Of a stretch of DNA of 64,000 nucleotides, positions 6,356 to 39,570 are shown one piece after another. The first letter of the stretch is position 1; each line of letters starts with the position of its first letter. Source of the stretch: a phage; NCBI GenBank assembly GCA_019385495.1, contig GCA_019385495.1_4102.1, one strand, 5' to 3'. The translations under genes were made by a program, and so were the position numbers. The notes beneath the pieces were generated by a model. That model saw nothing but the letters and a program-made list of their open reading frames with translations, did not search any database and was not told the origin of the DNA.

Positions 6356-6374
6356 TCATTTATTGGAGGTAATT

Positions 6375-7166
6375 ATGAAATTTGTTGTAACATCTGACGT
6401 ACACGGTGGAACTGATTACCTCCATCGCGGTGATTACAGTGATGTAGTACTGATCATTGCTGGGGACTTCGATGAAGTTAAACGCAGTCGTTACCGTACT
6501 GGTATCGAATCACTGTGTAAGCAGTTCAAAAATGTAGTACTGGTTCCAGGTAATCACGAATATTATGGTTCAAATATCATCAAAACGCATAAAGTACTAT
6601 CCAATATGCAGGATGAGATTCCTAATTTTATCTTTTTGCAAAACAAATTTGTATGGCTGGATGGAGTACTGCTTGTTGGTAGTACTCTGTGGACAGACTT
6701 CGATAAAGGTAATTCTTTGACGAAGTTTGATGCTCGTCAGAAGATGAACGATTACAAACATATCCGTCATGGAACAACATCAGAGCCTTGGCGTAAGAAA
6801 CTGACACCTGATGATACTGAGTTTATGCATCACAAAGATAAACAATTTATCAAAAATTCTATTGACACAGTTCGCTTTATGCATGATAATGATTTCAAGG
6901 TCATCGTGATTACTCATCACGCACCAAGTTATCAAAGTGTTTCACCAAAATATAAAAATGATTCACTAAATGGTTGTTACTGTTCCGATATGGATCAGTA
7001 CATTGAAGATTTGGGTGCTGATGTTTGGATTCATGGTCATGTTCATAGTAGCTTTGACTACCACATTGGTAAGACACGTATCATTTGTAATCCACGAGGC
7101 TATGAATCGTATAGTGGATCTTGTGAGAATTTTGATTACAATCCTAAATTTGTATTTGAAATTTAA
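6375..7166 (+). CDS. calcineurin-like metallophosphoesterase
   Basis: DVHGG, GDFD, GNHEYY, HHAP, GHVH motifs; RBS GGAGG at 6365; ORF-track start 6303 probably too early. Confidence 0.75.
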   Translation: MKFVVTSDVHGGTDYLHRGDYSDVVLIIAGDFDEVKRSRYRTGIESLCKQFKNVVLVPGNHEYYGSNIIKTHKVLSNMQDEIPNFIFLQNKFVWLDGVLLVGSTLWTDFDKGNSLTKFDARQKMNDYKHIRHGTTSEPWRKKLTPDDTEFMHHKDKQFIKNSIDTVRFMHDNDFKVIVITHHAPSYQSVSPKYKNDSLNGCYCSDMDQYIEDLGADVWIHGHVHSSFDYHIGKTRIICNPRGYESYSGSCENFDYNPKFVFEI

Positions 7167-7178
7167 TGTGAGGATACA

Positions 7179-7562
7179 GTGTCATTGATTTATTTTGAAC
7201 TACCAGAATATACCAATTATCCAAGCCGAGTTATTTGCTCAGTTTATAGTAATGCATATCATCACTTGTTAGTGAATAGTAATAAAGCTGTGCATTATTA
7301 TCGAAATAAAGAACCACGTACATTAAAGAATCGTTATGGTTTTGACCCAACTAACACTGAAGTTGAACTCTGTGATCTGTTTGGGGAAGTAATGGTGGTG
7401 TTGAAACGAGATATTCATCTTTTCCATACATACAAACTTAATCAGTACTTTATGGAAACACTGTCTATACGTTCCCATGCTCCGATGATTAAAGTTGATT
7501 TGAATTATGTTGATGATAAATTGAAATATGATTTCATAAATTCACTTGTTTATTTGGAGTAA
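7179..7562 (+). CDS. hypothetical protein
   Basis: ORF, GTG start. Confidence 0.4.
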   Translation: MSLIYFELPEYTNYPSRVICSVYSNAYHHLLVNSNKAVHYYRNKEPRTLKNRYGFDPTNTEVELCDLFGEVMVVLKRDIHLFHTYKLNQYFMETLSIRSHAPMIKVDLNYVDDKLKYDFINSLVYLE

Positions 7563-7563
7563 T

Positions 7564-7968
7564 ATGAATATACGTTCAGTACGAATATTTTCATTTGTTG
7601 ATATGAATGAAAAACACTCTTATGTGTTTGAAACTGTCAATAAGTTAAATCCTCATACGGCAAAAATGATTGAAACCATGAAGAACTTGAGTTTGCATAT
7701 AGAAGTTTACTATCTTCATGACGATTCTGTTTTTGTATATGATGATGGATGGTATGACGGTGTGTTTTATGATGACATTAGCACTACTGCTGATTACTAC
7801 TTTCTAGTGAGTAACCCACTATTCAGTACTAAAACTTTGTTTGACATTACCGATACAAGCGTGTATGATACAAGTCATGTTGAGTTACTTAAGTTTGATC
7901 CAGTATTATTCAACAAAGAAACGGCGTATTGGATGACTGATTTCTTTTCAAATATTCCAGTAAAATAG
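7564..7968 (+). CDS. hypothetical protein
   Basis: ATG after RBS GGAG; ORF-track 7546 start is non-ATG. Confidence 0.4.
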   Translation: MNIRSVRIFSFVDMNEKHSYVFETVNKLNPHTAKMIETMKNLSLHIEVYYLHDDSVFVYDDGWYDGVFYDDISTTADYYFLVSNPLFSTKTLFDITDTSVYDTSHVELLKFDPVLFNKETAYWMTDFFSNIPVK

Positions 7969-7970
7969 TT

Positions 7971-7998
7971 TGGACATTTTAAATCTTAGTGATATAAT
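7971..7998 (+). promoter_or_regulatory. promoter: TGGACAT box plus extended -10 TGATATAAT
   Basis: TGGACAT 7971-7977, TGaTATAAT 7990-7998, about 35 nt upstream of ATG 8033. Confidence 0.45.
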
Positions 7999-8032
7999 AC
8001 TCACAACAACGAAATAATAGAGGAAATTAACA

Positions 8033-8728
8033 ATGGTTGAACAATTCATGTTTGGTGGTTATGCTAATGGCGAAGTACGTAACATTTCTATTCCTTACGT
8101 AGTTGAGAAAGTTAATGGTTCAGAACGTACATATGATCTAGCATCTCGTATGATGCAAGACCGTATCATTTTCCTTGATACTGATTTCAATGATCAAATG
8201 GCACATATCATCAAACAACAATTGGTATGGTTAGACTCACAAGGTGATTCCCCTATTACATTCTACATTAGTTCACCGGGTGGTTCAGTACACGCAGGTT
8301 TGGGTATTGCAGATGTTGCTAAGTCTTGTATTTCTCCAATTCGCACTGTAGTAATGGGCTATGCAGCATCAATGGGTTGCTATACACAATCTGTAATTGG
8401 TACTAAAGGTTTCCGTTTAGGTGGTAAGCGTTCTTATTTCATGTGTCACCAAGTAAGTTCTGGTACACAAGGTCTAATTACTGACCAGAAGATTTCACTT
8501 AAACATTCTGATGCCCTAAACACTCTATTGACTAAAGAAATTGCAGAAGCAGTTGGTGTATCACACGAACAACTACTGAAAGATGCGGATCGTGACCTGT
8601 GGTTGAACGCTGAAGAAGCACTCGAATACGGTGAACATGGTTTCATTGATGGTATCATCCTCGGACCACGCAACGAAGAAGGTAAGTATCTCGTCAAACG
8701 TCGCGGTGGCGTTGAAGAGTGGGTCTAA
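8033..8728 (+). CDS. ClpP-like serine protease
   Basis: ISSPGGSVHAGLGI and MGYAASMG motifs typical of ClpP; RBS AGAGGAAA. Confidence 0.8.
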   Translation: MVEQFMFGGYANGEVRNISIPYVVEKVNGSERTYDLASRMMQDRIIFLDTDFNDQMAHIIKQQLVWLDSQGDSPITFYISSPGGSVHAGLGIADVAKSCISPIRTVVMGYAASMGCYTQSVIGTKGFRLGGKRSYFMCHQVSSGTQGLITDQKISLKHSDALNTLLTKEIAEAVGVSHEQLLKDADRDLWLNAEEALEYGEHGFIDGIILGPRNEEGKYLVKRRGGVEEWV

Positions 8729-8779
8729 TTTGAATTTCATTTGATGCCTCATTTGGGGCATCTTATTTCTGGAGATTTT

Positions 8780-9070
8780 ATGAAAGTTCTTGTACGTAAT
8801 AATACTGAAGTCAATGATGTGTTAGATGATTCAGAGTTTATTAATACCGCATTAGATCAGATTAGTGCAGTGGCTATTGAATTGAAAGGTGTTGACGAGG
8901 CAGAACGAGTACTCAATGGTTTTTCTATTGTTCTCGAATTAATGCAAGAAGTTCTTATTAAAAAGAACATTAATCCAATTAACGCAGTTCAACACGCAGA
9001 AGCTATGCGTCAAGAACATGGCACATTCTCAGATAAAAAATTCATCAGTACTGACGAGGGGAAAGAATAA
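8780..9070 (+). CDS. hypothetical acidic protein
   Basis: ATG after GGAG; ORF-track start 8741. Confidence 0.4.
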   Translation: MKVLVRNNTEVNDVLDDSEFINTALDQISAVAIELKGVDEAERVLNGFSIVLELMQEVLIKKNINPINAVQHAEAMRQEHGTFSDKKFISTDEGKE

Positions 9071-9071
9071 T

Positions 9072-9518
9072 ATGTCTAATGCACAATACAAAGAAGGTTC
9101 TGCCGCGTTTAAAAACAAAGTAGTTTTTAACAATGAACAGCTAAAATCACAGCACCCATTATTCCGTCAAGGATATCGTGCTGCACAAGCTGAAGCTATG
9201 AAGAAAAATAACGTAACCTTCCCAACAACTCTGTATGATATTCCCAAACGTCCTTCAGTGTTTAAAGCAGAATGGACTGACATTATGGCAGCAACTAAAC
9301 GTCCTCGTTTTGCTAAACTTCACACTGATGAAGGTCGCTGGATGTTGATGGGTATTATGAAAGCAGTTGAGAATCAGGCACATACTATTGTTCGTTACAA
9401 AGACGTTGTAGCTATGGTTGATAAAGCATTTGATCTTATTCTCCAGTACGGTTATGATGAAGGTGTACTAACTGTTTCCGATTGTGAGCAGTACCAGTAC
9501 ACTCCATTCCAGAAATAA
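9072..9518 (+). CDS. hypothetical protein
   Basis: ATG 9072 after RBS; ORF-track start 9018. Confidence 0.45.
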   Translation: MSNAQYKEGSAAFKNKVVFNNEQLKSQHPLFRQGYRAAQAEAMKKNNVTFPTTLYDIPKRPSVFKAEWTDIMAATKRPRFAKLHTDEGRWMLMGIMKAVENQAHTIVRYKDVVAMVDKAFDLILQYGYDEGVLTVSDCEQYQYTPFQK

Positions 9519-25104: not shown

Positions 25105-25546
25105 TTTAGTAAATGGAGAGGGCGTTCGCTGCTCTTTATTTGTTAGTGGGTGTTCGCACGGATGTGATGGTTGCTTCAATGAAGAAGCATGGGATTACAG
25201 AAGTGGTCAATTGTTCAGTACTGAAACAGTTGAGATTATACTACAGGAACTAAAAAAACCATATGTTAGTGGTTTGTCACTTCTAGGTGGTGATCCATTA
25301 ATGAAAAAGAATATAGATGAAGTTTTAAATCTATGCAAAGTAGTTAAAGAAACTTATCCTAGTAAAACTATTTGGTGCTGGAGTGGGTATACTTTAGATG
25401 AGATTATGAAAAATCATTCTAAAGATATACTTCAGTACTTAGATGTATTAGTTGATGGTAAGTTTATCGAGTCCGAAAAGAATTTAAAATTACCTTTCCG
25501 TGGTTCAAATAATCAAAGAATACTATATAAAAATAAAGATTTTTAG
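25076..25546 (+). CDS. nrdG: anaerobic ribonucleotide reductase activating protein (radical SAM)
   Basis: N-terminus MNYQ..LVNGEGVRCSLFVSGCSHGCDGC matches T4 NrdG pattern; CxxxCxxC. Confidence 0.9.
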   Translation: MNYQTIIKDDLVNGEGVRCSLFVSGCSHGCDGCFNEEAWDYRSGQLFSTETVEIILQELKKPYVSGLSLLGGDPLMKKNIDEVLNLCKVVKETYPSKTIWCWSGYTLDEIMKNHSKDILQYLDVLVDGKFIESEKNLKLPFRGSNNQRILYKNKDF

Positions 25547-25550
25547 CATA

Positions 25551-25573
25551 AGCACCCGTTGGGTGCTTTTTTA
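25551..25573 (+). terminator. intrinsic terminator
   Basis: AGCACCC-gtt-GGGTGCT followed by TTTTTT. Confidence 0.7.
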
Positions 25574-25622
25574 TTATGTATATAAATACATTAACTAATA
25601 TCTAATTTATAAGGGATATATA

Positions 25623-28319
25623 ATGTCAAAGAAAATATATGGTGGCTTAGATGTCACACATAATGTGACAGTTAATGGTAAAAGAACAATTCAAGGAATA
25701 AATGAACAAGTTTTTGATTCCAACGGTAACTTGGAATTAGATACTTATTCCAGAGATGAAGTACTAGATATAGTAAGTATGATACCAATCTCCCATTATG
25801 GTTCACAAAACTATCTACCTGCGGGTGTTTCTGGGGATTTCAATGGTGCATCAGAAAACCAGTCACAACGTAGAAATAAAATTTTATTAGAAAACGATGG
25901 TACACTAGTGCTTTTACGTAGTGGGACAAACGGTAGTGTTGAGGGATTATTTTATTCATATTTGGCTAACGCATTATCAGTTGATGACATGAGCCGTACA
26001 ATTAACACCAGTCGTCAATACAAGCCTGGGTTTTTTGGTTCAAATAGAGTTGCGATTGGTTTATACAATACTGATCCAAATATTTTACTCGGTAGATATA
26101 TTGATACTTCTAACAGTACTAATGGTTTGTTCATATCAATTACCAATGGTACATTAGATGATAAATTGCATACTGGTTTTTTCGTTAACCAAGCAGATAT
26201 ATCACCGGAAGGTGGTATTGAATATGCTATGATGGCAGAAGATGGTTCTATATATGTTTTTAGCGTACTTAATGAAAATAACCAACTACAATTAGTTGTT
26301 GTTAAAGTTGTTTATAATATAAGCAATGGTACTTATACTGCAACTCGAATTACTGGATGGACTACTAAAACATTTTATAACACGACATATTCTGCACAAA
26401 ATAATATGGTTATTACTAATCAGGTAAGATCAACAAATATTGCTGATAAACCTTATGCTTATGTCCCACAAAATCTACGCGGTATTGGGATTTACATGAC
26501 ATCAATTGATTTATATGTTGCACAGCAGCCAGGAACGCAGAATTTCCGCTTTAGAATGAACGGGGACGCTTGGTTTACAATGGCAACATATAATACACGT
26601 CCACAGCATAGTTACAGTTTTGTGTTCAATATGAGTACTAAACAATGTACATTAGATGCGGGTAACGATATTGGTTCATATCAAGCACCATTAGTTATAA
26701 CTAATACTGGTTCGGCATTAGTTCCTACTGGTAACGTTTTAAATAACGATCCATTGTATAACCATGCAAATGCAAGAAACATTTATAGTTCATATTTTTA
26801 TTTAAATTCAGGTGAAGCATTTTGTACTGCATGTCCAAACTTAGCAGAACCATTACTTATGCAAAAAGCTAAGTTTCCTATTCAAATAGTTTATAGTATG
26901 CTGAATGTCCGTGCTGTACTTTCTACTGACTTCAAAGGTGGTATAGTTCGCCCGTCTTTTGGTTCAGCGGTTGGTTCATTTATTAATGGTGTAGAATTAC
27001 TACCAGATAACAGTACTAAACAATATTCACGTGCATCAGGTAGTGGTGGATTTAGACCATCATATGCAGTTCATAAAAGTACTCCTAATTTTACATTTAA
27101 ATCATTATCTTTAGGAACAATACAAGGTTATGAACCTACAGTTGAACGTGCTAATGTTGATGATAATGCAAATAATAGAATTTTTATTAGTAGTATTTCT
27201 GGGTCAACTGTCACAACCAATGGTGGTATTTTTATGGTTGGGCAACGTTATTCACAATCATTATCCTATGATAAAAACTTAAATGGCACAGGAATTATAA
27301 GCGTTACACAATCAGTACTGGACAATTTTAGAAATACTGAATATGCCAAAGTTCTAAGTGATTGGAATTTATCAGCACAAGCATACCGTGATATGACACT
27401 ATTTGTTCCACAACAAACAGACATTCCAGCTTTTGTTATGTTGAGTACAATTACTAATGATTATAGAAACTATATTAGAATTGCTGAAGTTAATGTCAAT
27501 ACTAGAGTTGGTAATATTACATCTATTACATTTAAGCGTTTAGTACTTGAGAATACGTATGGTGATAACTTTACACCAACTGGGAATGGTTCGATTGCAT
27601 CTTCTTCTGTTGGTTTGACAATATATGATGGTGGTTCATTCTACTTCATTGGTGGTTCTGATCCATTATCACATCCAACAATAGGTAATACTGCAACTCA
27701 TCAATTTAGAGCATATGTAACTAAATCAACTGCACAATTTACAAGTTTTATAATTACTGGATCTCATGCCAGTTATGAACAAGGAAGTCAACCAGCAGCA
27801 TTACCTGGTATTGGTTTTGGAATTTTTGAACCAATGGATTACTCAAATAAAATGACATTCAAAAAATATGGAACAACGATTGCAGACTATAATAACTGGA
27901 CTGCACAAGGTAGCCCAATTAACGTAGTATCCCAGGACGTTGCTCAAGGGTTTATTGTATATTTTACAGAGGAAACACCAGTTATTCTTTCAGGTAAGTC
28001 ATTTTCACTACCAGTTTCAAATATTGATTTGAGAACTATTAAGTCTAATCCAGCAAATACAACATTTTATGTATATGTTAAATTGGAACAAGGATTGGCA
28101 AACTATTACATAACTACTGATGTTATTTCTGAAACAGGAACAACTGCATATAATATTTTTTGGATAGGTACAATTCAAACTAATGCAATTCAAATCGAAA
28201 CAATTAATATACAAAAACGTTCCCGTTTAGATATATTTGGTGCTTCACTTGAATCAGCAGGTTCATCGTTCCCAGTTAGCTACGGTCTACCATCACAAAC
28301 AGGAACCATAAACTGGTAA
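25623..28319 (+). CDS. tail-fibre-like protein (898 aa)
   Basis: Large Ser/Thr/Asn/Gly-rich protein sharing N- and C-terminal modules with two downstream paralogs; TATAAATA at 25581. Confidence 0.6.
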   Translation: MSKKIYGGLDVTHNVTVNGKRTIQGINEQVFDSNGNLELDTYSRDEVLDIVSMIPISHYGSQNYLPAGVSGDFNGASENQSQRRNKILLENDGTLVLLRSGTNGSVEGLFYSYLANALSVDDMSRTINTSRQYKPGFFGSNRVAIGLYNTDPNILLGRYIDTSNSTNGLFISITNGTLDDKLHTGFFVNQADISPEGGIEYAMMAEDGSIYVFSVLNENNQLQLVVVKVVYNISNGTYTATRITGWTTKTFYNTTYSAQNNMVITNQVRSTNIADKPYAYVPQNLRGIGIYMTSIDLYVAQQPGTQNFRFRMNGDAWFTMATYNTRPQHSYSFVFNMSTKQCTLDAGNDIGSYQAPLVITNTGSALVPTGNVLNNDPLYNHANARNIYSSYFYLNSGEAFCTACPNLAEPLLMQKAKFPIQIVYSMLNVRAVLSTDFKGGIVRPSFGSAVGSFINGVELLPDNSTKQYSRASGSGGFRPSYAVHKSTPNFTFKSLSLGTIQGYEPTVERANVDDNANNRIFISSISGSTVTTNGGIFMVGQRYSQSLSYDKNLNGTGIISVTQSVLDNFRNTEYAKVLSDWNLSAQAYRDMTLFVPQQTDIPAFVMLSTITNDYRNYIRIAEVNVNTRVGNITSITFKRLVLENTYGDNFTPTGNGSIASSSVGLTIYDGGSFYFIGGSDPLSHPTIGNTATHQFRAYVTKSTAQFTSFIITGSHASYEQGSQPAALPGIGFGIFEPMDYSNKMTFKKYGTTIADYNNWTAQGSPINVVSQDVAQGFIVYFTEETPVILSGKSFSLPVSNIDLRTIKSNPANTTFYVYVKLEQGLANYYITTDVISETGTTAYNIFWIGTIQTNAIQIETINIQKRSRLDIFGASLESAGSSFPVSYGLPSQTGTINW

Positions 28320-28330
28320 AGGATTACATA

Positions 28331-28918
28331 ATGGCATATAAAATAAGAGCAGACCTTAAGGCAATGCAACAAGTAACAGTTCAGGGTAAAAGTACTGGTC
28401 TTGGTGTATTAGGTAATAATATGACTTATTACCCAACAAATTCAAATGGGGAATGTACATTCCCCTCTATTACCAAAGATGAAGTTAACTTTATTGTCAA
28501 TGGATTACCACTTACACAATACGGAGAATTGTATGATGACGCTAGTCTAAATATTACTTCATCAGGCTATAGTCTTACATTTAACAGACAGATACCATCA
28601 TTTATTGGTGGTTATCTTTATAAATTTCCAGCAGTTTCTATTTTTGCTTCAACTGTTTCATCTGGAACACAAACACAATACGTATATGCAACGTTAGTTC
28701 TCGGTGAACCAATTTATAAAATATCACCAACACAAATACAAGAATCTGAAATTATAATGTTTATTGGAACACTGACCGTTGGTACAAGTGGTATTACAAA
28801 TATAAACATTAATAAAGTATCCAGATTTAGTACATATAGACCTAGTGTTACACAAAAAGGTTCTTCATTCCCAGTCAGTACTGGAAAACCATCAGAAACT
28901 GGTACAATTGGTTGGTAA
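28331..28918 (+). CDS. short tail-fibre-like paralog (195 aa)
   Basis: C-terminus GSSFPVSTGKPSETGTIGW matches GSSFPVSYGLPSQTGTINW of the upstream gene. Confidence 0.5.
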   Translation: MAYKIRADLKAMQQVTVQGKSTGLGVLGNNMTYYPTNSNGECTFPSITKDEVNFIVNGLPLTQYGELYDDASLNITSSGYSLTFNRQIPSFIGGYLYKFPAVSIFASTVSSGTQTQYVYATLVLGEPIYKISPTQIQESEIIMFIGTLTVGTSGITNININKVSRFSTYRPSVTQKGSSFPVSTGKPSETGTIGW

Positions 28919-28934
28919 ATTAAGGAAAAGAAAG

Positions 28935-31664
28935 ATGTCATCAAAACGAATTATAGGAAGTGCCGAGATCCTTGGGAACTTGGCAATTGGACAAAGGTAC
29001 GCTATGCGTACTTTTAATGGAACCTCACCGAATGCCAATACTGGAATTGTTCAATATCCAATATATAAGCGTTCAGAAGTTCAAAGTATTTTAGATATGT
29101 TGCCTATATCACGTGTAGGAGAAATGGATTACTTACCATTAAACGTAAGTGGGTCGTATGAAGGTGCTACACCTATGTCAAGTGACCAAGTAGTTCAGCC
29201 AACAATTATTGAAGATGATGGAACCGCCGTTGTTCTGCGTAGCGGAACCAATGGTAGTACTAAAGGTTTTTATTATTCATTTATACGAGAACTCCGAAAT
29301 ATAACTATGATTTCACAAGAAAGTGTTATTTCAACCAATTCAATGTATAAACCTTCAATTATGAGTAGTACTGAAAATATTAAGTATTTTATTGGCTCTA
29401 ATGGTTATGAGATGCTTGGATGTTTAAGTACTGAAGATAATTATATTTTTACTATAACCAATGGCACATTTAACGAAATATCACATATTCATGCTAAAGT
29501 GCCAAGTACTTCTTTTGGTAATGATATGCCAATATATACACATATTGTTGGGACAAAGGTTTATATTTGGTGTAAAGATAAAAGTGTTTCTAATTTAGGA
29601 TTAGCACTTTCAATTTATACAGTAGAGCTAAGTGATGTGAAAGCAAGCTCAATGGCATCATTAACAAAAGTTACTGGGTTATCAGGTCAAACTGTTCGAA
29701 ACACAAGTTATTCTGCATCTAATAACATAAGAGTGTTCGATAAATTATATAGTGTTGGTACTAGCTCGGATTCATTATTCGAAGTTACATCACCAGTATC
29801 ACGTGTAGAATTTTCAGACTATACAGACTTTAACATTCAAGCCAACGTTAGTCCTGATTTATCAAAAATACGTGTAACTTTATATCCAACACATCGAATG
29901 GTTACACCTTTGTATATTTCAACAGTTTATGGTACTGGAATAAGTTTTGTTTATAATATAAACTCAAAATCTATGTCACTAGATGGTAGTGCTCGTGCAC
30001 CTGCAACTGTTTCATATAATAATGGATTTCAAGTTTCTAACCCATTTGAAATTAATATGGTCAACTTCACAGGGACAACTGCTGCTGGTGTATTAGGAAA
30101 CGCAGGTGGTTTATGTCAAACTAAAGATGGTTTGGTATTTGCATCTAAATTTAGATGGAGTTCAACTGAATTTTATGGTCTACAACGATATAAGGTTAGT
30201 GGTACACCGTTTGATTCATGGGTTGCCAGTACTAGAACCGCAAGTAACGTTATAAATGCAAACGTTTTACCAGTTTTTGGTAGTGCTGTTGGTGCAAACC
30301 TTTTAGGTGTACGTTTCATCGATAATAGAAAAATATTATTAGCATGTTCTGGTACGTATGATGATGTAACATATAATTATAATAATACTGTTTTTTCTGA
30401 AATAGGTTCACAACCAACATATCAATATAACTCAGTTCAAAATAATACTACATTAAATGGTTTTGCTCCACAATCTAATCGTAAACAAATAGGCGATGAT
30501 TTTACATACACTGCTATGATTTCTCTTGTTGATACCGATGGTAGTGTTAGATGCTATGGAACATCATTCATTGAAGGTGTATATAAAACAAGTGGTGGAT
30601 TATTAAATCCAGATACTTTAGAATTTGATGAAACATATACAATAGAACCAACGGTATTAGAATCATTAAAACAAGATATTTTTGCTAATATAGGAAACTC
30701 TGGCATTGTTGGTACACTATCTGGACAAATTGTATTATATTATGTACCTGATAATACTTTTTCTAAATCCATCGCAGTAGTTTCAGCATATAATCTTAAC
30801 AATAACCAAGGTTATGCAATCTATGCCGAAGTTGATGTTGTATTATCTGGAACTAACATAACTTCAGCTACATTGGTAAGTACTAGATATGAGACACTTA
30901 GTTCTGTTACAGGAATTATTACTGAAGCATATATGAAACGTTGTACTGGTCTAACAGTTGCTAAATATTCAGGATTTGGTTACATTGGTGTTGATGCCGT
31001 TCATCAATTTTCACAACCAGGTAATGCACAATTTAAGATGATGATAGCTAAAACAGTAGATGGTGTCATAACATCAAATCGTTTTTTATCATCTAGTTAC
31101 ATCCAACTCGGTGCAGCATATCAACATGGTGTTATTCCTGGTGTTGGTTTTGGATATTACAATTTTCAAGATTCTGACTATCAAACCAAATCTGTATTCA
31201 GCGTTTTTGGTACAACATCTGCTGAAATGGATGGTTTAATTAGCGGAAATGGTAGCGTTAAAGAAAAGATTGTGGTAGTATCACAAGACGTTGCACAAGG
31301 ATTCTCAGTGTACTTTACACGTGAAGTTCCGGTGTTTTTAGGTGGAATTTTCGACAGACTACCTATACAAAGTGTAGATTTAAGTACTGTAAAAAGTAAT
31401 CCAGCTAATACTACGTTCTATTTGTATATACAAATGAACAGGAATACTAAGAAAGCTTCATATGTTATTAGTACTGAAACTATTGATGAATCTTTAACTA
31501 GCACTTACATTGGTAAGATAGTTACTGGAACTTCAGGAATAACTTCAATTGATACAGAAAAAGTAACTCGTTTTTTGACATATCGTCCAAGTACAACGAA
31601 ACGTGGTTCAGCGATACCTGCCAGTACTGGTGTACCATCAGGTCCAGGTACACGTTGGAAATAA
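28935..31664 (+). CDS. tail-fibre-like protein (909 aa)
   Basis: Shares VVSQDVAQGF..VYFT and C-terminal modules with 25623-28319; RBS AAGGAAAAG; ORF-track start 28845. Confidence 0.6.
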   Translation: MSSKRIIGSAEILGNLAIGQRYAMRTFNGTSPNANTGIVQYPIYKRSEVQSILDMLPISRVGEMDYLPLNVSGSYEGATPMSSDQVVQPTIIEDDGTAVVLRSGTNGSTKGFYYSFIRELRNITMISQESVISTNSMYKPSIMSSTENIKYFIGSNGYEMLGCLSTEDNYIFTITNGTFNEISHIHAKVPSTSFGNDMPIYTHIVGTKVYIWCKDKSVSNLGLALSIYTVELSDVKASSMASLTKVTGLSGQTVRNTSYSASNNIRVFDKLYSVGTSSDSLFEVTSPVSRVEFSDYTDFNIQANVSPDLSKIRVTLYPTHRMVTPLYISTVYGTGISFVYNINSKSMSLDGSARAPATVSYNNGFQVSNPFEINMVNFTGTTAAGVLGNAGGLCQTKDGLVFASKFRWSSTEFYGLQRYKVSGTPFDSWVASTRTASNVINANVLPVFGSAVGANLLGVRFIDNRKILLACSGTYDDVTYNYNNTVFSEIGSQPTYQYNSVQNNTTLNGFAPQSNRKQIGDDFTYTAMISLVDTDGSVRCYGTSFIEGVYKTSGGLLNPDTLEFDETYTIEPTVLESLKQDIFANIGNSGIVGTLSGQIVLYYVPDNTFSKSIAVVSAYNLNNNQGYAIYAEVDVVLSGTNITSATLVSTRYETLSSVTGIITEAYMKRCTGLTVAKYSGFGYIGVDAVHQFSQPGNAQFKMMIAKTVDGVITSNRFLSSSYIQLGAAYQHGVIPGVGFGYYNFQDSDYQTKSVFSVFGTTSAEMDGLISGNGSVKEKIVVVSQDVAQGFSVYFTREVPVFLGGIFDRLPIQSVDLSTVKSNPANTTFYLYIQMNRNTKKASYVISTETIDESLTSTYIGKIVTGTSGITSIDTEKVTRFLTYRPSTTKRGSAIPASTGVPSGPGTRWK

Positions 31665-31670
31665 ATTTAA

Positions 31671-31709
31671 AGCTCGTCTATTGACGGGCTTTTCTTTTAT
31701 GTGTATAAT
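31671..31709 (+). promoter_or_regulatory. terminator hairpin overlapping a sigma70-type promoter
   Basis: AGCTCGTC-tatt-GACGGGCT plus T-run; TTGACG (31681-31686), 17 nt, TATAAT (31704-31709). Confidence 0.55.
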
Positions 31710-31731
31710 TGAATAAAAATAGGAGGAAATT

Positions 31732-32298
31732 ATGGTCAAATCTTTATTACCGCCACCAAAACGTCACAAAATCAAAGAAATGAAAGAACAACGTACATTA
31801 AAGATGTACATCAATTTAGTTAAGTTACTGTGTAAAAGTCCATCGCTCAAAGCAGAGTTTAAAACTGATGATGACCGCAAAGCACTAATTGAGATGAAGT
31901 ATATGCTCAGTAAAATGTCCTTTTACAAATTTGTAAAAGAATACGCATCTGACCCATTTAGTCCTCGTTGGAGAGCCAAACCAAGAGAGTATTTTTACGG
32001 TGGTTCATATACGGATCTCATTCAAGACACAGTGATGGGAGTTGAATTTGAAATCGATTATGAGCCGAATGGTGTGGAAAGCTGGCCGATTGAGAAACGT
32101 TTACCAAGTGAAGAAGAAATTTATGTTTATGCAAGAAAACTTTCAAATTTCAGTTCAAGAATTACTCTAGGCAATTTAGATTCATTTATTATTTTCTATA
32201 CACGTGTTGGTGTAGATAAAATGGTAACTAAACTCAATGAACTTTCATTACAACAAAAACAGATTAATGCATACAAAGACATTACTGATTTATACTAA
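31732..32298 (+). CDS. hypothetical protein, tandem paralog 1
   Basis: Shared D-R/K..Y-K/M-LSK motif with the next two genes. Confidence 0.45.
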   Translation: MVKSLLPPPKRHKIKEMKEQRTLKMYINLVKLLCKSPSLKAEFKTDDDRKALIEMKYMLSKMSFYKFVKEYASDPFSPRWRAKPREYFYGGSYTDLIQDTVMGVEFEIDYEPNGVESWPIEKRLPSEEEIYVYARKLSNFSSRITLGNLDSFIIFYTRVGVDKMVTKLNELSLQQKQINAYKDITDLY

Positions 32299-32304
32299 TG
32301 AGGA

Positions 32305-32823
32305 ATGGATATGTTTTTTGGATCAGTTGGAAAACAAAACAGTACTTTAATTTGGCATGAAATTATCTTTAAAATTATATCTAAAAGCTACTCACTAAAG
32401 GATATTATCACCACAGATAATGATAGACGTATCCTGTTAGATGCAAAATATAAATTGAGCAAACACCCTTTACTTTCTTTAATCATTGATTACGTTAATG
32501 ATTATGAATCTAGTCGTTGGAAGTGGGAAGACGGCGGTTTATTTCGTGGAAAAACATTCTACGGTGCGGAACGATATGTTTTCAGTGATACATCAAATGG
32601 CGTTAAGTTTGTTATTAGAAACTTTAACTCCAAAGAAAATGATTATCTTGAAAGTGGAGTGAAAGTATATATCGATAATAGCAATGTACTAACATATGAC
32701 GAATCACTAATTATGTTACAAATAATGCGTGGAGTTGAAGGTGTAAGAAACAACCTTACTAAATTGAAAATCCAGCAAAATGATATACATAATAGACAGA
32801 AAATTAAGGGTTTATATAAATGA
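32305..32823 (+). CDS. hypothetical protein, tandem paralog 2
   Basis: Paralogous to 31732-32298. Confidence 0.45.
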   Translation: MDMFFGSVGKQNSTLIWHEIIFKIISKSYSLKDIITTDNDRRILLDAKYKLSKHPLLSLIIDYVNDYESSRWKWEDGGLFRGKTFYGAERYVFSDTSNGVKFVIRNFNSKENDYLESGVKVYIDNSNVLTYDESLIMLQIMRGVEGVRNNLTKLKIQQNDIHNRQKIKGLYK

Positions 32824-33329
32824 TTTCATTTTTCAAAAAGAAACAAAAAGTTGATGAAACCGGATTAGAATCGTTTCTATGGACTCTTATCATCAAAAAA
32901 AGTCCATTGATAAAAGAATATGCTATCAATGATGCTAATAGAAAAACTATCATTGAATACAAATACGAATTATCAAAATGTGATCCAATCGTTTATCACT
33001 TTGCGAAGTACTGTTCAAAAAATTTATCGGATATCACAATCGACCACGAGTCAGTCCCGATGAGTTTTCCTTATGGTGATTGGGTAGATACTTTTGATAT
33101 TTTTGATGGGTCAAATGGTTTCAGTTTCTTTTACTCGTCAAATAAAGCAAATGTTCGTATTAAAACAGACATAGGTTGGACACAGCATAGCTCAAATAAA
33201 GAAGATTATAATTTATTAGCTGACGTATACCGAAGTGTGAAGAATTCAAAGGATATTGATGAAAGAATTAAAAAGCAAAATCGTATATCTTTATCACTTG
33301 AAACATACAAGTCAAAGTATGGTGGTTAA
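32820..33329 (+). CDS. hypothetical protein, tandem paralog 3
   Basis: Paralogous; ATGA overlap. Confidence 0.45.
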   Translation: MISFFKKKQKVDETGLESFLWTLIIKKSPLIKEYAINDANRKTIIEYKYELSKCDPIVYHFAKYCSKNLSDITIDHESVPMSFPYGDWVDTFDIFDGSNGFSFFYSSNKANVRIKTDIGWTQHSSNKEDYNLLADVYRSVKNSKDIDERIKKQNRISLSLETYKSKYGG

Positions 33330-33331
33330 CT

Positions 33332-33733
33332 ATGACTACAGTTGATGATATCTATAGCACTATACGCAATATGAGTACAGATAGAAAAGTATTTGGCGAT
33401 AAAGAAAAATCTAAGTGTTATGGTATTGATTCTTTTGATATAATTTCTTATGAGTACAATACAAGTGGAAATAGTTCACTGAATATCGTCTGTCCTCGTG
33501 ACCCAGAAAATAATTTTATGTATGTTGAAATTAATAATGATGGAATGTTTTTTACAAAAGTTTTCAAAGGTGGAATTAATTACGAACCTATTGAATGTAT
33601 GAATGAAGAAACTTTCTTTCAAGAAGATACAATTATCAATTTAGGTTTTAGTTTTGATGATTATAAAACATTAGAACATGACTTTAATCGTTATTATAAT
33701 GGTTTCTTAAAGGAGTTAACAATTTATCTATGA
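33332..33733 (+). CDS. hypothetical protein
   Basis: ORF. Confidence 0.4.
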   Translation: MTTVDDIYSTIRNMSTDRKVFGDKEKSKCYGIDSFDIISYEYNTSGNSSLNIVCPRDPENNFMYVEINNDGMFFTKVFKGGINYEPIECMNEETFFQEDTIINLGFSFDDYKTLEHDFNRYYNGFLKELTIYL

Positions 33734-36000
33734 ATAACCAATATATTGAACAAACAATAGTGAAACACTTGGCTGGGTCACAAGCCTACGGAACCAGTAC
33801 ACCTGAAAGTGATACTGATTATCGTGGTATTTTTCTTGCTAATAAAGAATTTATTCTTACACCCTTCTATAAGGTCAAAGAGGTAGCTGATAAAAGCGAA
33901 GAAGATACTAAATTCTATGAGTTGAATCAGTATTTAAAATTATACACTGAAGCTAACCCTAATATTCTTGAATCACTTTGGGTTGAACCTGAACACATTG
34001 TTGAAAGTACTGAAATTTATGACTATCTTCGTTCATTTAACCAAAAACTTCTTAGTTCCAAGATTGCATTTTCATATACTGGTTATGCATATAATCAGAT
34101 TAAGCGTATGACAAATCATCACGGTTGGATGGATAAAGAGCGTATTGCTGAAAAACGATTAAATGAGATTTTAGAAGAACACCCTGTCGATGAGGTTCTT
34201 GCGTGGATGTATGATTCATTCCCACAGTATCTTGTTGAACGTTTAGATACATCGAACTTACATCCATTTAATGCTAAAAAGATTGATTTTGAAAAATATA
34301 TGCGTGATACATCATTGCAGTTAGTTTCGAAAAATCCATTAAAGCAATATCATTTCGTAAGATTAGTGCATAACTACACTACTGAAAAAATTCTTGATCG
34401 TGATTTCAATTTATTGAATTTTAATAATGGTTATGAACTAATTCATTACGGAGAAAACATTTTTGCGATTGTTAAAAATCCGAATGAAAGTACTATCAAT
34501 GGTGATGGTTCATTGCGTTATTTTTCTAAAGAGCGTAGTACTGAAGAGTTGAAAACTAAACCAGAACTAATTGTCAAATTTAACGAAAAAGAATATCAGG
34601 AAAATAGTGAGAATAGGAAAAGTTATCATAAATGGAAAGAAAATCGTAATGCCAAACGTGCTATTTTAGAATCACAACACGGATACGACTGTTATAGTTT
34701 TGATACTGAATTCTTAACTAAAGATGGTTGGAAATTATTTGACGACATCACTGATAAAGATCTATTAGCGACTTTTGATAAAAATCACAAAATAGAGTAT
34801 CAAAAATACACAGAACGTTTTGATAATTTATACAATGGAAATCTTTACCATTTCACTGGTCATCACCAAGATACGTTAGTGACTGCAAATCACAGAATGT
34901 ATGTTAAGAATTATGCACGTAATCAGCAAAAAGATATGTCAGAATGGCAATTTGTTGAAGCAGCACAATTAAAAGAAACTTATAAAATTTTGAATACATT
35001 ATCTCCAATAACAAAGGAATATAAAGATAAAAAAAGCCCAATTGACTATATGGATATCAAAGTTTATCTTCAACTGATGGGATGGTTTCTTTCAGATGGT
35101 AGTATAAGTTTTAGAGATGGAAAAGTAAAATCATTATACATTTCACAATCAAAAGCCAGTCCTGGTATGCGTTGTGCTTTATCAAAATACAAACAATCTG
35201 GACAAATGATATTTCAGGAATACATTAACGAAAGAAAAGATTACCAATCAAATGATGAATCAAGATTTGTATTTCCACGTGAAGTGGCTGAAGCATTATA
35301 TAATGATTGTGGGCATGGATCATATAATAAAAGAATTCCAAATTGGGCATTTGATTTAACAAAACGAAAAATGGATTTTCTGCTAAAAGGTTTGTTGCAA
35401 GGTGATGGTACAAAACGTAATTTGGTCAATCATGATGACACATATGTATATTATACTGCTAATTCATTATTAGCTGATGATGTTCAAAAACTAGCATTAC
35501 TGTGCGGTTATGAAACATCGAAATGGGGACCATACACAAACGAAACTAATTTTGGTTATATTGAAATGTATCAAGTTCATATCAATATGAAACCTAAATC
35601 AGAAAAAATAAACATGAAACAAAATCTTGAAAAAATTCCAGTAACTAACTACAGAACTGTTTGTTTTTCAGTTCCGAACGGTACACTGGTTACTCGTAGA
35701 AATGGTAAAACTGCATTACATGGAAACTGTAAACATGCTATGCACACAATCCGACTTTTGAATAGTGCAGAAGAAGCATTACAAAGTGGAATTATTCAAG
35801 TTAAACGACCAGATGCACAAATGTTGATGGATATTCGTAATGGTAAATGGAAGTATGAAGAAGTCTTAGAATATTTCGATGATAAAGTACAATACATTCG
35901 TGATGTTCTATATAAGAAATCAGTACTTCCTAAAAAACCAAACATCAAGTTAGCATCAAAAATTATCATTGATATTAGAGAAATGCAATGGTATAAGTAA
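33730..36000 (+). CDS. nucleotidyltransferase-fold protein interrupted by an intein
   Basis: N-terminal GSQAYG..SDTDYRG minimal NTase motif; internal intein-like segment of about 346 aa. Confidence 0.6.
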   Translation: MNNQYIEQTIVKHLAGSQAYGTSTPESDTDYRGIFLANKEFILTPFYKVKEVADKSEEDTKFYELNQYLKLYTEANPNILESLWVEPEHIVESTEIYDYLRSFNQKLLSSKIAFSYTGYAYNQIKRMTNHHGWMDKERIAEKRLNEILEEHPVDEVLAWMYDSFPQYLVERLDTSNLHPFNAKKIDFEKYMRDTSLQLVSKNPLKQYHFVRLVHNYTTEKILDRDFNLLNFNNGYELIHYGENIFAIVKNPNESTINGDGSLRYFSKERSTEELKTKPELIVKFNEKEYQENSENRKSYHKWKENRNAKRAILESQHGYDCYSFDTEFLTKDGWKLFDDITDKDLLATFDKNHKIEYQKYTERFDNLYNGNLYHFTGHHQDTLVTANHRMYVKNYARNQQKDMSEWQFVEAAQLKETYKILNTLSPITKEYKDKKSPIDYMDIKVYLQLMGWFLSDGSISFRDGKVKSLYISQSKASPGMRCALSKYKQSGQMIFQEYINERKDYQSNDESRFVFPREVAEALYNDCGHGSYNKRIPNWAFDLTKRKMDFLLKGLLQGDGTKRNLVNHDDTYVYYTANSLLADDVQKLALLCGYETSKWGPYTNETNFGYIEMYQVHINMKPKSEKINMKQNLEKIPVTNYRTVCFSVPNGTLVTRRNGKTALHGNCKHAMHTIRLLNSAEEALQSGIIQVKRPDAQMLMDIRNGKWKYEEVLEYFDDKVQYIRDVLYKKSVLPKKPNIKLASKIIIDIREMQWYK
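34690..35727 (+). mobile_element. intein with LAGLIDADG homing-endonuclease motifs
   Basis: Starts CYSFDTEF (block A-like), VTANHRMYV (block B TxxH), LMGWFLSDGS and LKGLLQGDGT (LAGLIDADG-like), ends ..ALHGN followed by Cys. Confidence 0.55.
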
Positions 36001-36014
36001 CATATACAAGTGTA

Positions 36015-36206
36015 ATGGTACTAAAAATGCCATTACACTCAATAAATACTCAATATAAATTAACACAAGGATTAAGTATGGCACAACAAATTTTCACAGA
36101 TATCCACACTACCGGAGTTATTAAATTTCAAAATAATTTTTCAGGTGCAACTGGTGTAGACATTAAAAATGATGGTTTTAACATTATCAGTACTCGGATC
36201 TATTGA
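36015..36206 (+). CDS. hypothetical protein (possibly 5' part of a frameshifted gene)
   Basis: ORF overlapping the next by 38 nt in another frame. Confidence 0.3.
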   Translation: MVLKMPLHSINTQYKLTQGLSMAQQIFTDIHTTGVIKFQNNFSGATGVDIKNDGFNIISTRIY

Positions 36207-36705
36207 TGGTGAAGATAGTTCTCTTAGTGATTCTGTGATTGCATCATTCGGAACTAATAAAAACAGTTCTTTTATTATATCTGGATGGACTGGAATGACT
36301 GATTCTGAAAATAATGTTAAGATAAAAGCTAAAGCTACTAACGAGAATCATGAAACAGAATGGGTAACATTATATGATAGTGCAAGTAATAAGTTATATA
36401 ATGTACTAAGTTCTAATAATATTTTAATTAATCCACTGTCGGGCAATGCTGTTTTTAATATTAATTTATCTGATAGAAATACTACTATTTCGATTGGTGC
36501 GGCTCCTACTGAAGTTTATTCAATTACCATCCTATTAACACAACAAACAGGTTCAAACCTAGTTAATTGGGGTTCTAATGTTAAATGGTCATATAACAGA
36601 CCAGTTGTTCTTTCTTATGAAATTGGTGAAAAAGATATTATTTCATTAGAAACATATGATAAAGGAGTTACATGGTACGGTGCATTAATTAGAGCAGGAG
36701 TATGA
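36169..36705 (+). CDS. hypothetical protein
   Basis: ORF. Confidence 0.4.
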   Translation: MMVLTLSVLGSIDGEDSSLSDSVIASFGTNKNSSFIISGWTGMTDSENNVKIKAKATNENHETEWVTLYDSASNKLYNVLSSNNILINPLSGNAVFNINLSDRNTTISIGAAPTEVYSITILLTQQTGSNLVNWGSNVKWSYNRPVVLSYEIGEKDIISLETYDKGVTWYGALIRAGV

Positions 36706-36706
36706 T

Positions 36707-39496
36707 ATGTTAAACAATAATATTGATAATATTGTACAACTTCTTTATGGGCATCACAAATTTATTGAAAGAAATACTGGTGATACAATAGACCCAACAG
36801 TACAACATTATGTGGTGAATAATCAGGGTGTTTTGGCGAACAACCGTCATTTTATTAACTATTCTGCAATGGAAGGTCAACCAAACGGTGACGGGACAAC
36901 AGAAGGTCAAAGTCTATTAATTTTAGGATACATTTATGCGTATCTGGCAACAAATGATCCAATGTTTTTAGATAAAGCCAAATGGTACTGGGATGCATAT
37001 CATCAGTACTTTTATGCTGGGCGTGAATTACCAGACCCACCAACCCCACTGCAATGTAACTGGATAGTTAATGCCAAAGAACCGATTTTGGCTAACTGGC
37101 CTTTAGCTGATGATGGATGGCCTACACATGGTGGTTTCAAGGGTGTAGAATTTACATTTACAAATGGACAATGTAAAATACCACATGGTGCACCTTATTA
37201 TGGTCAGTTCTTGGATAAAGTAACATTTGCATTCAAAGGTGCTTTAGCATGGAACCAAATAAATGCGTCAGTAAAAGCTTTATTACCAGATGGTAGTGTT
37301 GATTGGGATACACCAGGTGAACAATATGATGTTGACTGGATTATTGATTTCATGGGTAGAAAAATCGACTGGGATGGTAATATTTTAGCAGAAGGTTTTG
37401 ACGAATCTGAAAAAGGAACTGTTCAATTAAAGAATACAACAATTAATGGTGTATATAAATTAAATTTTGCTAATCGTCAACCAGTAGAATATGGTGGTGT
37501 GATAATTCAACGAAATGAAATGCAACACAACCGCCCTCTTCATGTTCCAATTGATTTGGAATTTGCTGATAACGCATCAGATGCAGAATTATGGTTTAGT
37601 GATGCTTCTTATTTGTTATATAAAATAACAAAAGAAAGAAAACATTATTTGGGTTGGAAATGTTCACTACTAACGTGTTATGCTTATGGTGATATTGACT
37701 CCAGAGATAAATTTTTCAGACAAAGTACAATTGTAACCACACCATTCACTGATGGTATTTCCTATGAATATTTTTATCCAAGTGATGCTATTGCTAAGTT
37801 TGGTAGAAATTCTCTAGGATATATTACTATCAGGCAAGACCAAAGTGCACAAAGTACAATGGAACAACAAGCTATTTGGTTCAGGGTCAATGCTGATTCT
37901 AAATTACTTGTAGACTATGGTGGTGTATGTGATGATGGTAAGCCGTTATCATTTAAACCAGTACTGGAATTGTCAAAAACAAAAAATGACCATGATGTTG
38001 TTCGTTATCGTTGTGGCTTACCGGAAAGTAAAGACCAAAATATCACACATTCATTAACACCTTTAAGTGCATTTGTTAGAGAAAAGAAAGCAGATGGTTC
38101 CCCTTATATAATTGCTGATAGTAGAATTGTTGTTCCTTATGGTGCAGCTACGTCCGAAATGATATATAGTACTGATATATTAGTTACACGCCGCGATACC
38201 ATTAATCAGTTAGTTTGTGGTGAAGATGATGGTGCTGTTATTGGATTTTGGCTATTAGCAACAAATAAGTCTGAAGTTAAATCTTTTACATATCGTTCAT
38301 ATGAAGATGATTACAATATAAGAATTGTAGATGATAATGGTTGGAGATGGTGGTGGATGATTCCTGCAACACACGGGGAATGGACTACAATCACACTAAG
38401 TTCCGATACATTACGTTTATCTGGGTATCAGCCAAATCATCCAAGTTCTGACCCAAGACCAGATGCACCAGTTTATAGTGAACTAGAAGATATTACTATT
38501 TTACCTGATACAACCCCAGTAGATGGTGTTGCTGCAATAATTGATTGGTATTGTATTAATGACATTCCAGAATTATACACGGATGCTGACGGTGATGACT
38601 ATACTATGACATTTTCAATAACAATTGCAGGTGAATCACCATATACTGCACAGTTAGGGGATTGTGTAATCAAGGATTATTTGTTAAACTCATTGCATTA
38701 CACACCAGGAACAATACCATTTTCTAACATCACTGACCCGTATGCGAACCAGTATTCAGGATGGCGTGGTTTACCGTATCCAGGTTATCAATATCCTGTG
38801 ATATATTGTTTTAAAGACCAGCCGGTAGATAACACACGCTTAGGAAACATGTTAAGCTTTATGAAAGATTCCCAAACATGGTTTACTCAACAATTCGGTA
38901 CTGTTGGTCCGTGTGCACAAGCATATGTTTGGAACCGCTGGGATAACTTAAAATATGGTGAACCAGATACATTTACTATGCTACATTGGGGTGATCAAGC
39001 ATGGAGTGGGTATGAACCACGTGCGTTCTTTGGGGCTGCCAGAGCATGGCAAGAACTCGCAGAGAGAGGAATTGAACCACCAGCAGATCTTGTTGAATTT
39101 TGTGAGAATTGGATTCACTTTTTAATTCAATTTCAAAAAGATAATGATGGTCGTTCACCAACAATCTTCAATAAAGATGGCACAGTTGAAGGTCCAGATT
39201 GGGACTTTACAGGTCATATGTGTGGGTTGTGGTTAGCTGGGGCTTGTGCTGCTGGATTGGCTGGATGTAAAATAGAAGGTCTAACAACACTCGCTGATAA
39301 CTTAGTTCTCGAACTTCAAAAGAATTATGTTATTGTAAATCCAGGTTCACCAATGAATGGTTCATGGAGTCCAGCAGTCAGAGAAGGTACTGATAATGGT
39401 ATGTTTTTTGGTTTCTGGGCAGGTGAGATTATGCGTGGATTGGGATTATACTCAATGTACCGCTTAAACACACCAAATCGTTTCCGTGATTTATAA
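36707..39496 (+). CDS. large hypothetical protein (929 aa), Trp-rich
   Basis: Long ORF; function not recognised. Confidence 0.5.
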   Translation: MLNNNIDNIVQLLYGHHKFIERNTGDTIDPTVQHYVVNNQGVLANNRHFINYSAMEGQPNGDGTTEGQSLLILGYIYAYLATNDPMFLDKAKWYWDAYHQYFYAGRELPDPPTPLQCNWIVNAKEPILANWPLADDGWPTHGGFKGVEFTFTNGQCKIPHGAPYYGQFLDKVTFAFKGALAWNQINASVKALLPDGSVDWDTPGEQYDVDWIIDFMGRKIDWDGNILAEGFDESEKGTVQLKNTTINGVYKLNFANRQPVEYGGVIIQRNEMQHNRPLHVPIDLEFADNASDAELWFSDASYLLYKITKERKHYLGWKCSLLTCYAYGDIDSRDKFFRQSTIVTTPFTDGISYEYFYPSDAIAKFGRNSLGYITIRQDQSAQSTMEQQAIWFRVNADSKLLVDYGGVCDDGKPLSFKPVLELSKTKNDHDVVRYRCGLPESKDQNITHSLTPLSAFVREKKADGSPYIIADSRIVVPYGAATSEMIYSTDILVTRRDTINQLVCGEDDGAVIGFWLLATNKSEVKSFTYRSYEDDYNIRIVDDNGWRWWWMIPATHGEWTTITLSSDTLRLSGYQPNHPSSDPRPDAPVYSELEDITILPDTTPVDGVAAIIDWYCINDIPELYTDADGDDYTMTFSITIAGESPYTAQLGDCVIKDYLLNSLHYTPGTIPFSNITDPYANQYSGWRGLPYPGYQYPVIYCFKDQPVDNTRLGNMLSFMKDSQTWFTQQFGTVGPCAQAYVWNRWDNLKYGEPDTFTMLHWGDQAWSGYEPRAFFGAARAWQELAERGIEPPADLVEFCENWIHFLIQFQKDNDGRSPTIFNKDGTVEGPDWDFTGHMCGLWLAGACAAGLAGCKIEGLTTLADNLVLELQKNYVIVNPGSPMNGSWSPAVREGTDNGMFFGFWAGEIMRGLGLYSMYRLNTPNRFRDL

Positions 39497-39497
39497 C

Positions 39498-39526
39498 TTG
39501 ACATAGAAAAAGTAATTATGTATAAT
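39498..39526 (+). promoter_or_regulatory. consensus sigma70 promoter
   Basis: TTGACA (39498-39503), 17 nt, TATAAT (39521-39526). Confidence 0.7.
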
Positions 39527-39527
39527 C

Positions 39528-39558
39528 AGAGAACTTCATATGGAGTTCTCTTTTTTTA
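39528..39558 (+). terminator. intrinsic terminator immediately downstream of the promoter -10
   Basis: AGAGAACT-tcatatgg-AGTTCTCT followed by TTTTTTT. Confidence 0.6.
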
Positions 39559-39570
39559 TAAGGTGATAAA

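Follow-up and report, generated by a model that had tools for sequence, protein, structure and literature searches.

A family of tandem paralogs behind a terminator-embedded promoter in Asteriusvirus jumbo phages

What are three small, mutually similar genes doing between the structural genes and an RNA-repair gene of a jumbo phage? The question is raised by a 64,000-nucleotide (nt) stretch of phage DNA (contig GCA_019385495.1_4102.1; hereafter, the window), in which a first-pass annotation had placed three adjacent open reading frames (ORFs), here called A, B and C (188, 172 and 169 amino acids, aa), directly behind a promoter. The three ORFs are indeed located there (Table 1). They had been taken for paralogs with a shared core, and possibly for a diversifying family. 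Our analysis upheld the paralog family and the promoter embedded in a terminator, and virion proteomes argue that the proteins are non-structural, whereas the idea of a diversifying family did not stand.

We assign the window to an Asteriusvirus jumbo phage of the 121Q/PBECO4-like, E. coli host group. Its region 31600-33800 is 99.5% identical to Escherichia phages 121Q, vB_EcoM_G17 (hereafter, G17), BF17, Sharanji and phAPEC6, and about 25 further Asteriusvirus genomes match this region at 90-98% identity; all are jumbo myoviruses of ~350 kb. The counterparts of A, B and C in G17 are G17_00421-00419, and every ortholog in 121Q, G17 and phAPEC6 is labelled as a hypothetical protein. Salmonella phage SD-1_S14 has shortened versions of all three genes, in a 310-kb record with an apparent assembly-quality problem.

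Homology and predicted structure of A, B and C

The relationship among the three proteins was detected by several methods. BLASTP aligned A and B across their full length (27% identity, 2e-15) and also matched A to C (9e-5) and B to C (5e-3), in agreement with a phmmer comparison of the three. Full-length PHROG membership assigned A (6e-80) and B (3e-84) to phrog_18641 and C (7e-58) to phrog_7868, with cross-matches of phrog_7868 to B (7e-13) and to A (4e-6), and of phrog_18641 to C (5e-5). The core D-R-x-x-[LI]-[IL]-x-x-K-Y-x-L-S-K, whose conservation had been noticed from the sequence, was found in 3/3 paralogs (DDRKALIEMKYMLSK in A, NDRRILLDAKYKLSK in B and ANRKTIIEYKYELSK in C). One family hidden Markov model (HMM) recovered A, B and C at 1e-45 to 1e-53 and no other window ORF, and neither hmmsearch nor hhalign revealed further family members among the other ORFs of the 64-kb window. 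These alignments confirm that A, B and C are true paralogs whose likeness is beyond chance. Given the cross-matches, the recovery of all copies by a single HMM and a common predicted fold, phrog_18641 and phrog_7868 represent one superfamily. Gene D, the next gene of the same operon, was considered as a fourth paralog and ruled out, as it showed no family similarity by phmmer/hmmsearch or hhalign.

The structure of B was predicted with AlphaFold2 from a 35-sequence alignment (predicted local distance difference test score, pLDDT, 89.6; predicted template modelling score, pTM, 0.80), replacing an earlier model from 10 sequences (pLDDT 67.5). In the model, helices at residues 17-65 are followed by four strands (72-123) and a single 40-residue helix (131-170). 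The three paralogs are accordingly predicted to be single-domain proteins, each with an N-terminal helical module, a variable four-stranded beta region and a C-terminal 40-residue helix ending in an invariant Tyr (Y171 in B, conserved in 100%). Sequence conservation is uneven along the protein, with mean pairwise BLOSUM62 scores of 1.25 for the helical module, 0.61 for the C-terminal helix and 0.17 for the beta region, which also has insertions and deletions. The best-conserved residues are polar (in B numbering, K27, S28, D38, R41, K48 at 97%, Y49, S52, K53 and D95 at 91%), and helical periodicity suggests that D38, R41, K48/Y49 and S52/K53 lie on one face of helix 38-52. The proteins are hydrophilic and mildly basic (isoelectric point, pI, 8.7-9.2). 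No significant neighbour of the confident AlphaFold model was found in the PDB.

Distribution and age of the family

Proteins of the family measure ~160-190 aa. When 1.84 billion cluster representatives were searched exhaustively with a profile, 40 family proteins emerged, comprising 37 single-domain proteins of 139-209 aa and 3 shorter fragments; word-indexed homolog searches had returned close relatives only (5, 9 and 11 proteins), and the exhaustive HMM search reached further. Matches by tblastn were confined to RaK2-like jumbo phages, i.e., Asteriusvirus, Alcyoneusvirus, Eneladusvirus, Mimasvirus, 7t3, PHA46 and fENko-Kae01. At each locus examined, the family genes lie between genes for large virion proteins and an RlaP gene. 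The number of copies per locus is two in the RaK2 group and in the metagenomic contigs L006 and L007, three in Asteriusvirus and 7t3, and four in Pectobacterium phage CBB (CBB_150, 153, 155 and 156; 5905-9357 of locus L013) and Yersinia phage fHe-Yen9-04 (g140, g143, g145 and g146; 5917-9264 of locus L018). In CBB, fHe-Yen9-04 and the metagenomic contig L016, the family genes are interleaved with Thg1, DUF4326 and N4/N6 methyltransferase genes. A text search of the CBB supplementary files found the four family genes in the annotation table only, and not in a paralog table.

A rough neighbour-joining tree separated a type-1 subfamily (A, B and the first gene elsewhere) from a type-2 subfamily (C and its counterparts). 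The split between the C type and the A/B type is older than the divergence of Asteriusvirus and Alcyoneusvirus, and the A/B duplication is older than the split of the 121Q clade from phage A4. Both subfamilies have been kept in most lineages. The stricter rule of one copy of each subfamily in every genome is weakened by contig L016, where an unrelated 117-aa ORF occupies the type-2 position.

Selection and divergence

Gene-wide Nei-Gojobori ratios of nonsynonymous to synonymous substitution rates (dN/dS) were calculated for unsaturated pairs of Asteriusvirus orthologs. They were 0.13-0.30 for A, 0.12-0.22 for B and 0.05-0.12 for C, and 0.03-0.06 in the same comparison for the nucleotidyltransferase (NTase) gene that ends the operon. 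The substitution pattern is one of purifying selection on A-C, somewhat relaxed, and does not support gene-wide diversifying selection. The description of a diversifying family is thus not borne out by these ratios across related phages (0.05-0.30), and the duplications are old. At longer range, protein identity to phage A4 is 34-41% for A, B and C, whereas D reaches 61%, the NTase 88% and the upstream protein 51%; by this measure A-C are the fastest-evolving part of the block. In a comparison with phage Ecwhy_1 (locus L009) over 31732-36000, the synonymous divergence (dS) of A, B and C was 0.1-0.45, whereas that of D, the NTase and the upstream gene was >1.5 or saturated, a mosaic that indicates recombination breakpoints inside the block.

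A promoter embedded in the preceding terminator

The hairpin that closes the upstream structural operon overlaps the promoter of gene A. The -35 element TTGACG (31681-31686) sits in the hairpin loop and 3' arm, the 17-nt promoter spacer is formed mostly by the terminator T-tract, and the -10 element TATAAT follows at 31704-31709. Gene A has a Shine-Dalgarno sequence, AGGAGG, at 31721-31726 (+), read from the sequence, ahead of its ATG at 31732. The predicted fold of the intergenic RNA is more stable than those of shuffled sequences (z = -4.8), the hairpin alone reaches -14.4 kcal/mol, and a terminator is annotated there in G17 as well. An Rfam search of the window returned no RNA family.

The first family gene is preceded by the same design (TTGAC placed in the loop and 3' arm, a spacer of 17 nt and a -10 element resembling TATAAT) in at least seven lineages, among them A4, Salmonella phage 7t3, Klebsiella phage fENko-Kae01, CBB, fHe-Yen9-04 and three metagenomic relatives (equivalent sites at loci L002, L006, L007, L013, L014, L016, L018 and L019). 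CBB has two tandem copies of the embedded promoter, and in fHe-Yen9-04 a second promoter follows the first. The stems are wholly different between lineages with their pairing kept (GCTCGTC/GACGGGC, GCCTGTC/GACAGGC, GAGGTTGTC/GACAGCCTC and GCCCC/GGGGC). In Alcyoneusvirus (RaK2-like Klebsiella phages) the terminator is separate from a TTGACA-17-TAAAAT promoter. Because the design is conserved across lineages, the promoter is a selected feature and no chance match to the consensus. The promoter noticed within the terminator in the first-pass annotation is therefore a genuine and conserved one of sigma-70 type, and its sequence points to use by the host RNA polymerase.

In read-through RNA (31692-31728), the U-tract of the terminator (UUCUUUUAU) can form base pairs with the Shine-Dalgarno region of A (AUAGGAGGA), and transcripts started at the embedded promoter would lack the U-tract. 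Such pairing could limit the translation of A to promoter-initiated mRNA, though we judge it to be generic pairing of U-rich with purine-rich sequence.

The operon and its boundaries

Genes A, B, C, D and the NTase gene form a tightly packed five-gene unit, with ATGA stop-start overlaps at the B/C and D/NTase junctions and a gap of 2 nt between C and D. The start of B is probably the second ATG, at 32311, giving a protein that begins with MFFG, rather than 32305, because GAGG (32300-32303) lies 7 nt from the former and 1 nt from the latter, the start is so annotated in G17, and an MFF opening is typical of the family. Gene D is conserved 3' of the paralogs in Asteriusvirus, and in the Klebsiella phages ORFs of equal size lie at that position.

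The last gene encodes a predicted RlaP-family NTase. RlaP NTases are widespread in phages and are predicted to mend RNA that host defence nucleases have cut (PMC7824862). The window NTase is 756 aa long, compared with 410 aa in G17 and the other Asteriusvirus genomes examined, and is interrupted by a 346-aa intein (~34690-35727; Cys321 ... His-Gly-Asn666 / Cys667) with a LAGLIDADG_3 homing-endonuclease domain; its exteins are 99% and ~100% identical to G17.

For the related phage CBB, the early genes have been assigned RpoD-like promoters and the late structural genes an ATAAATA motif (PMC5259590). Motifs like ATAAATA follow the hairpin at the operon end, and the phAPEC6 ortholog (gp315c) of the small gene 3' of this boundary is a virion protein. 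On the other side, the upstream structural module is preceded (25540-25590) by a terminator, AGCACCCGTTGGGTGCTTTTTT, followed at 25581 by TATAAATA, a T4-type late-promoter motif; of this octamer, which is depleted, the window has 3 copies where 12.5 would be expected. Given the embedded promoter, the packed genes and the late-promoter-like motifs bordering both flanking modules, the A-B-C-D-RlaP unit looks like an island that the host polymerase drives, set between two late modules.

Table 1 Features of the locus in the window.
Feature	Position	Strand	Description
Structural module	25623-31664	+	Two ~900-aa virion proteins and a 195-aa gene; virion mass spectrometry
Intrinsic terminator hairpin	31669-31692	+	10-bp stem, AAAGCTCGTC-TATT-GACGGGCTTT, then T-run; closes upstream structural operon
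Sigma-70-type promoter	31681-31709	+	TTGACG-17-TATAAT, 11/12 consensus matches
Paralog A	31732-32298	+	188 aa, pI 9.2; orthologs 121Q gp502, phAPEC6 gp321c
Paralog B	32311-32823	+	170 aa (172 aa from 32305), pI 9.2; orthologs 121Q gp503, phAPEC6 gp320c
Paralog C	32820-33329	+	169 aa, pI 8.7, type-2 subfamily; orthologs 121Q gp504, phAPEC6 gp319c
Gene D	33332-33733	+	133 aa, acidic, pI 4.4, phrog_22376; same operon as A-C
RlaP-family (Pol-beta) NTase	33730-36000	+	Pfam PF10127, E 1e-14; last operon gene
Operon end	36010-36060	+	Hairpin GTGTAATGG...CCATTACAC (36010-36038), then ATAAATA/TATAAAT late-promoter-like motifs

The upstream module is itself built of paralogs. Its two ~900-aa virion genes (25623-28319, 898 aa, and 28935/28845-31664) are related over their full length (27% identity, E 7e-64), and the 195-aa gene (28331-28918) is a stand-alone copy of the C-terminal ~120 residues of the pair (phrog_26864 / phrog_3573). 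A second tandem paralog set, consisting of the ~900-aa pair and the 195-aa gene, thus directly adjoins the A-B-C set.

Farther downstream, genes for a fibre protein (178 aa) and a tail protein (929 aa) follow the NTase gene (36015-39496) in the window, 121Q, G17 and PBECO4. They are not found at the same position in Ecwhy_1, UE-S1 and Turkey3 (loci L009, L010 and L011 compared), and this segment looks like a variable receptor-binding cassette. Next to it (39498-39560), the hairpin GAGAACTTCATATGGAGTTCTC and T7 come just a few bases after a TTGACA-17-TATAAT promoter sequence with 12/12 matches, ahead of a gene at 39571; the arrangement would produce a transcript of ~30-40 nt or act as an attenuator.

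Function of the family

The available virion proteomes speak to the role of A-C. The phAPEC6 virion list contains gp314c, gp315c and gp323c and does not contain gp319c-321c (mass spectrometry; PMC7247149), and in the CBB virion data (supplement) CBB_148 and CBB_149 are flagged and CBB_150, 153, 155 and 156 are not. As two virion proteomes include neighbours of the family but not the family itself, we take A-C to be non-structural. Searches of A-C with Pfam, NCBIfam, PADLOC and HMM searches of PDB sequences gave no usable match; a PADLOC DUF2290 match (E 0.003, to A alone) and an NCBIfam S14 match (E 0.11) were dismissed as noise, and HMM searches for known defence or anti-defence families had no match beyond noise. 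Our literature searches turned up neither a study of these genes or PHROGs nor transcriptome data for a RaK2-like coliphage.

We tentatively favour the view, with a probability of roughly 40%, that A-C serve as accessory proteins in host takeover or counter-defence, early or midway through infection. The reasons are the host-type promoter, the insulation from the late operon and the operon shared with RlaP, together with the interleaving with Thg1 and DNA methylase genes elsewhere, the restriction to one clade, the multiple copies and the rapid long-range divergence. Under this interpretation, the host RNA polymerase would transcribe the A-B-C-D-RlaP unit early or in mid-infection, insulated from late read-through. 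The conserved helical face of all copies would bind a common ligand or partner, and the fast-evolving beta region may confer its own specificity on each paralog. The stop-start overlaps suggest translational coupling. A-C may work as homo- or hetero-oligomers, possibly via the long C-terminal helix, an idea that draws on these long helices, the stop-start overlaps and the fact that most lineages have kept both subfamilies. They may also act alongside the co-encoded nucleic-acid repair and modification enzymes.

Several points weigh against a role in host takeover or counter-defence. The timing of A-C expression is read from the promoter sequence, and synteny with RlaP and Thg1 is weak evidence because gene order is broadly collinear in these phages. 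Absence from virion mass spectrometry is negative evidence. The dN/dS values, all <0.3 gene-wide, show no arms race, and contig L016, apparently without a type-2 member, weakens the case for an obligate heteromer.

The best-surviving alternative, which we nevertheless consider unlikely, is that A-C are non-virion assembly factors or chaperones for the adjacent ~900-aa pair and 195-aa protein (elsewhere annotated as minor tail or structural proteins), with the small paralogs matching the large ones. The family is always directly 3' of the conserved ~900-aa virion paralogs, which are themselves duplicated, and chaperones are typically missing from virions, consistent with the phAPEC6 and CBB data. 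However, the two modules are separated by the conserved terminator and the family's own sigma-70-type promoter, no late-promoter motif precedes A, and the family shares its transcription unit with enzymes of RNA repair and modification and not with structural genes. The copy numbers also do not correspond, since two large genes and one fragment accompany three small genes in Asteriusvirus but two in L006, and three large genes accompany four small ones in CBB. The family pair also persists in Alcyoneusvirus, where the genes upstream carry a tail-fibre annotation and differ in size (~740 and ~690 aa), and no Pfam or PHROG match to tail-fibre chaperone families (Tfa / gp38 / gp57A-like) was found.

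Less probable again is a role as cofactors or substrate adaptors of RlaP/Thg1 RNA repair, for example in presenting damaged tRNAs. It would account for the linkage to RlaP at every locus examined and for the interleaving with Thg1 in CBB, fHe-Yen9-04 and L016, and both the basic pI and the conserved polar K/R/Y/S helix face would suit contacts with a phosphate backbone. Because RlaP is widespread in phages (PMC7824862) and the family counts 40 representatives in 1.84e9 proteins, however, the family must be missing from most phages that carry RlaP. In net charge the proteins are no more than mildly basic, none of the known RNA-binding folds was detected, and such a role would explain neither the variability of the beta domain nor the presence of several copies. 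Very doubtful, finally, is that A-C are transcription or expression regulators that bind DNA, RNA polymerase or a sigma factor in an early-to-middle/late switch, even though their expression is likely early, they are small and basic, their N-terminus is rich in helix, and RaK2-like phages carry divergent 'middle' promoters without an identified activator (PMC5259590).

Returning to host takeover and counter-defence, a more specific version is speculative and rather improbable: A-C would have a new fold, form type-1/type-2 hetero-oligomers and constitute an early counter-defence module of RaK2-like jumbo phages. As one possibility, they would neutralise or decoy tRNA- or RNA-targeting host nucleases together with RlaP and Thg1, the variable beta domains would follow different host effectors, and the embedded promoter would be a conserved device letting the host RNA polymerase fire the island amid late structural operons.

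Significance and comparison with known systems

RaK2/121Q-like jumbo phages are candidates for phage therapy, and >80% of their genes are without assigned function. The analysis merges two orphan PHROGs into one ancient clade-specific family, with a confident model and an operon and regulatory context. The A-B-C-D-RlaP genes are a defined unit that can be deleted or expressed whole in tests of host takeover and counter-defence, and the terminator-embedded promoter is a compact, portable regulatory design.

PHROGs keeps phrog_18641 and phrog_7868 as two separate families without function; here they are one superfamily. Lineage-specific paralogs make up ~10% of RaK2 genes (PMC3622015), and CBB has 22 paralogous ORFs (PMC5259590). 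Like these jumbo-phage expansions, A-C are small, tandem-duplicated and restricted to one phage clade, and the family is of an ordinary type for jumbo phages. Unlike them, it is old, position-locked across at least five genera, divided into two subfamilies and under purifying selection. A-C are thus a new, well-delimited case of a familiar class, the clade-specific paralogous accessory genes of jumbo phages.

In phage T4, early host-takeover and counter-defence genes are transcribed from sigma-70 promoters. A-C resemble them in being small, non-structural, located behind a strong promoter of host type and encoded alongside functions in RNA repair, but show no homology in sequence or structure to the T4 early proteins that have been characterised. 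The 'head plus long helical stalk' proteins XRCC4/PAXX/SAS-6 were also compared, but no significant structural match to the head domain and coiled-coil stalk of the XRCC4-like superfamily was obtained. The regulatory region, for its part, resembles the back-to-back terminator/promoter junctions of compact phage genomes in that adjacent transcription units are insulated from each other; it differs from ordinary junctions of this kind in that the -35 element lies inside the hairpin, the T-tract serves as the 17-nt spacer, and the stems change across lineages.

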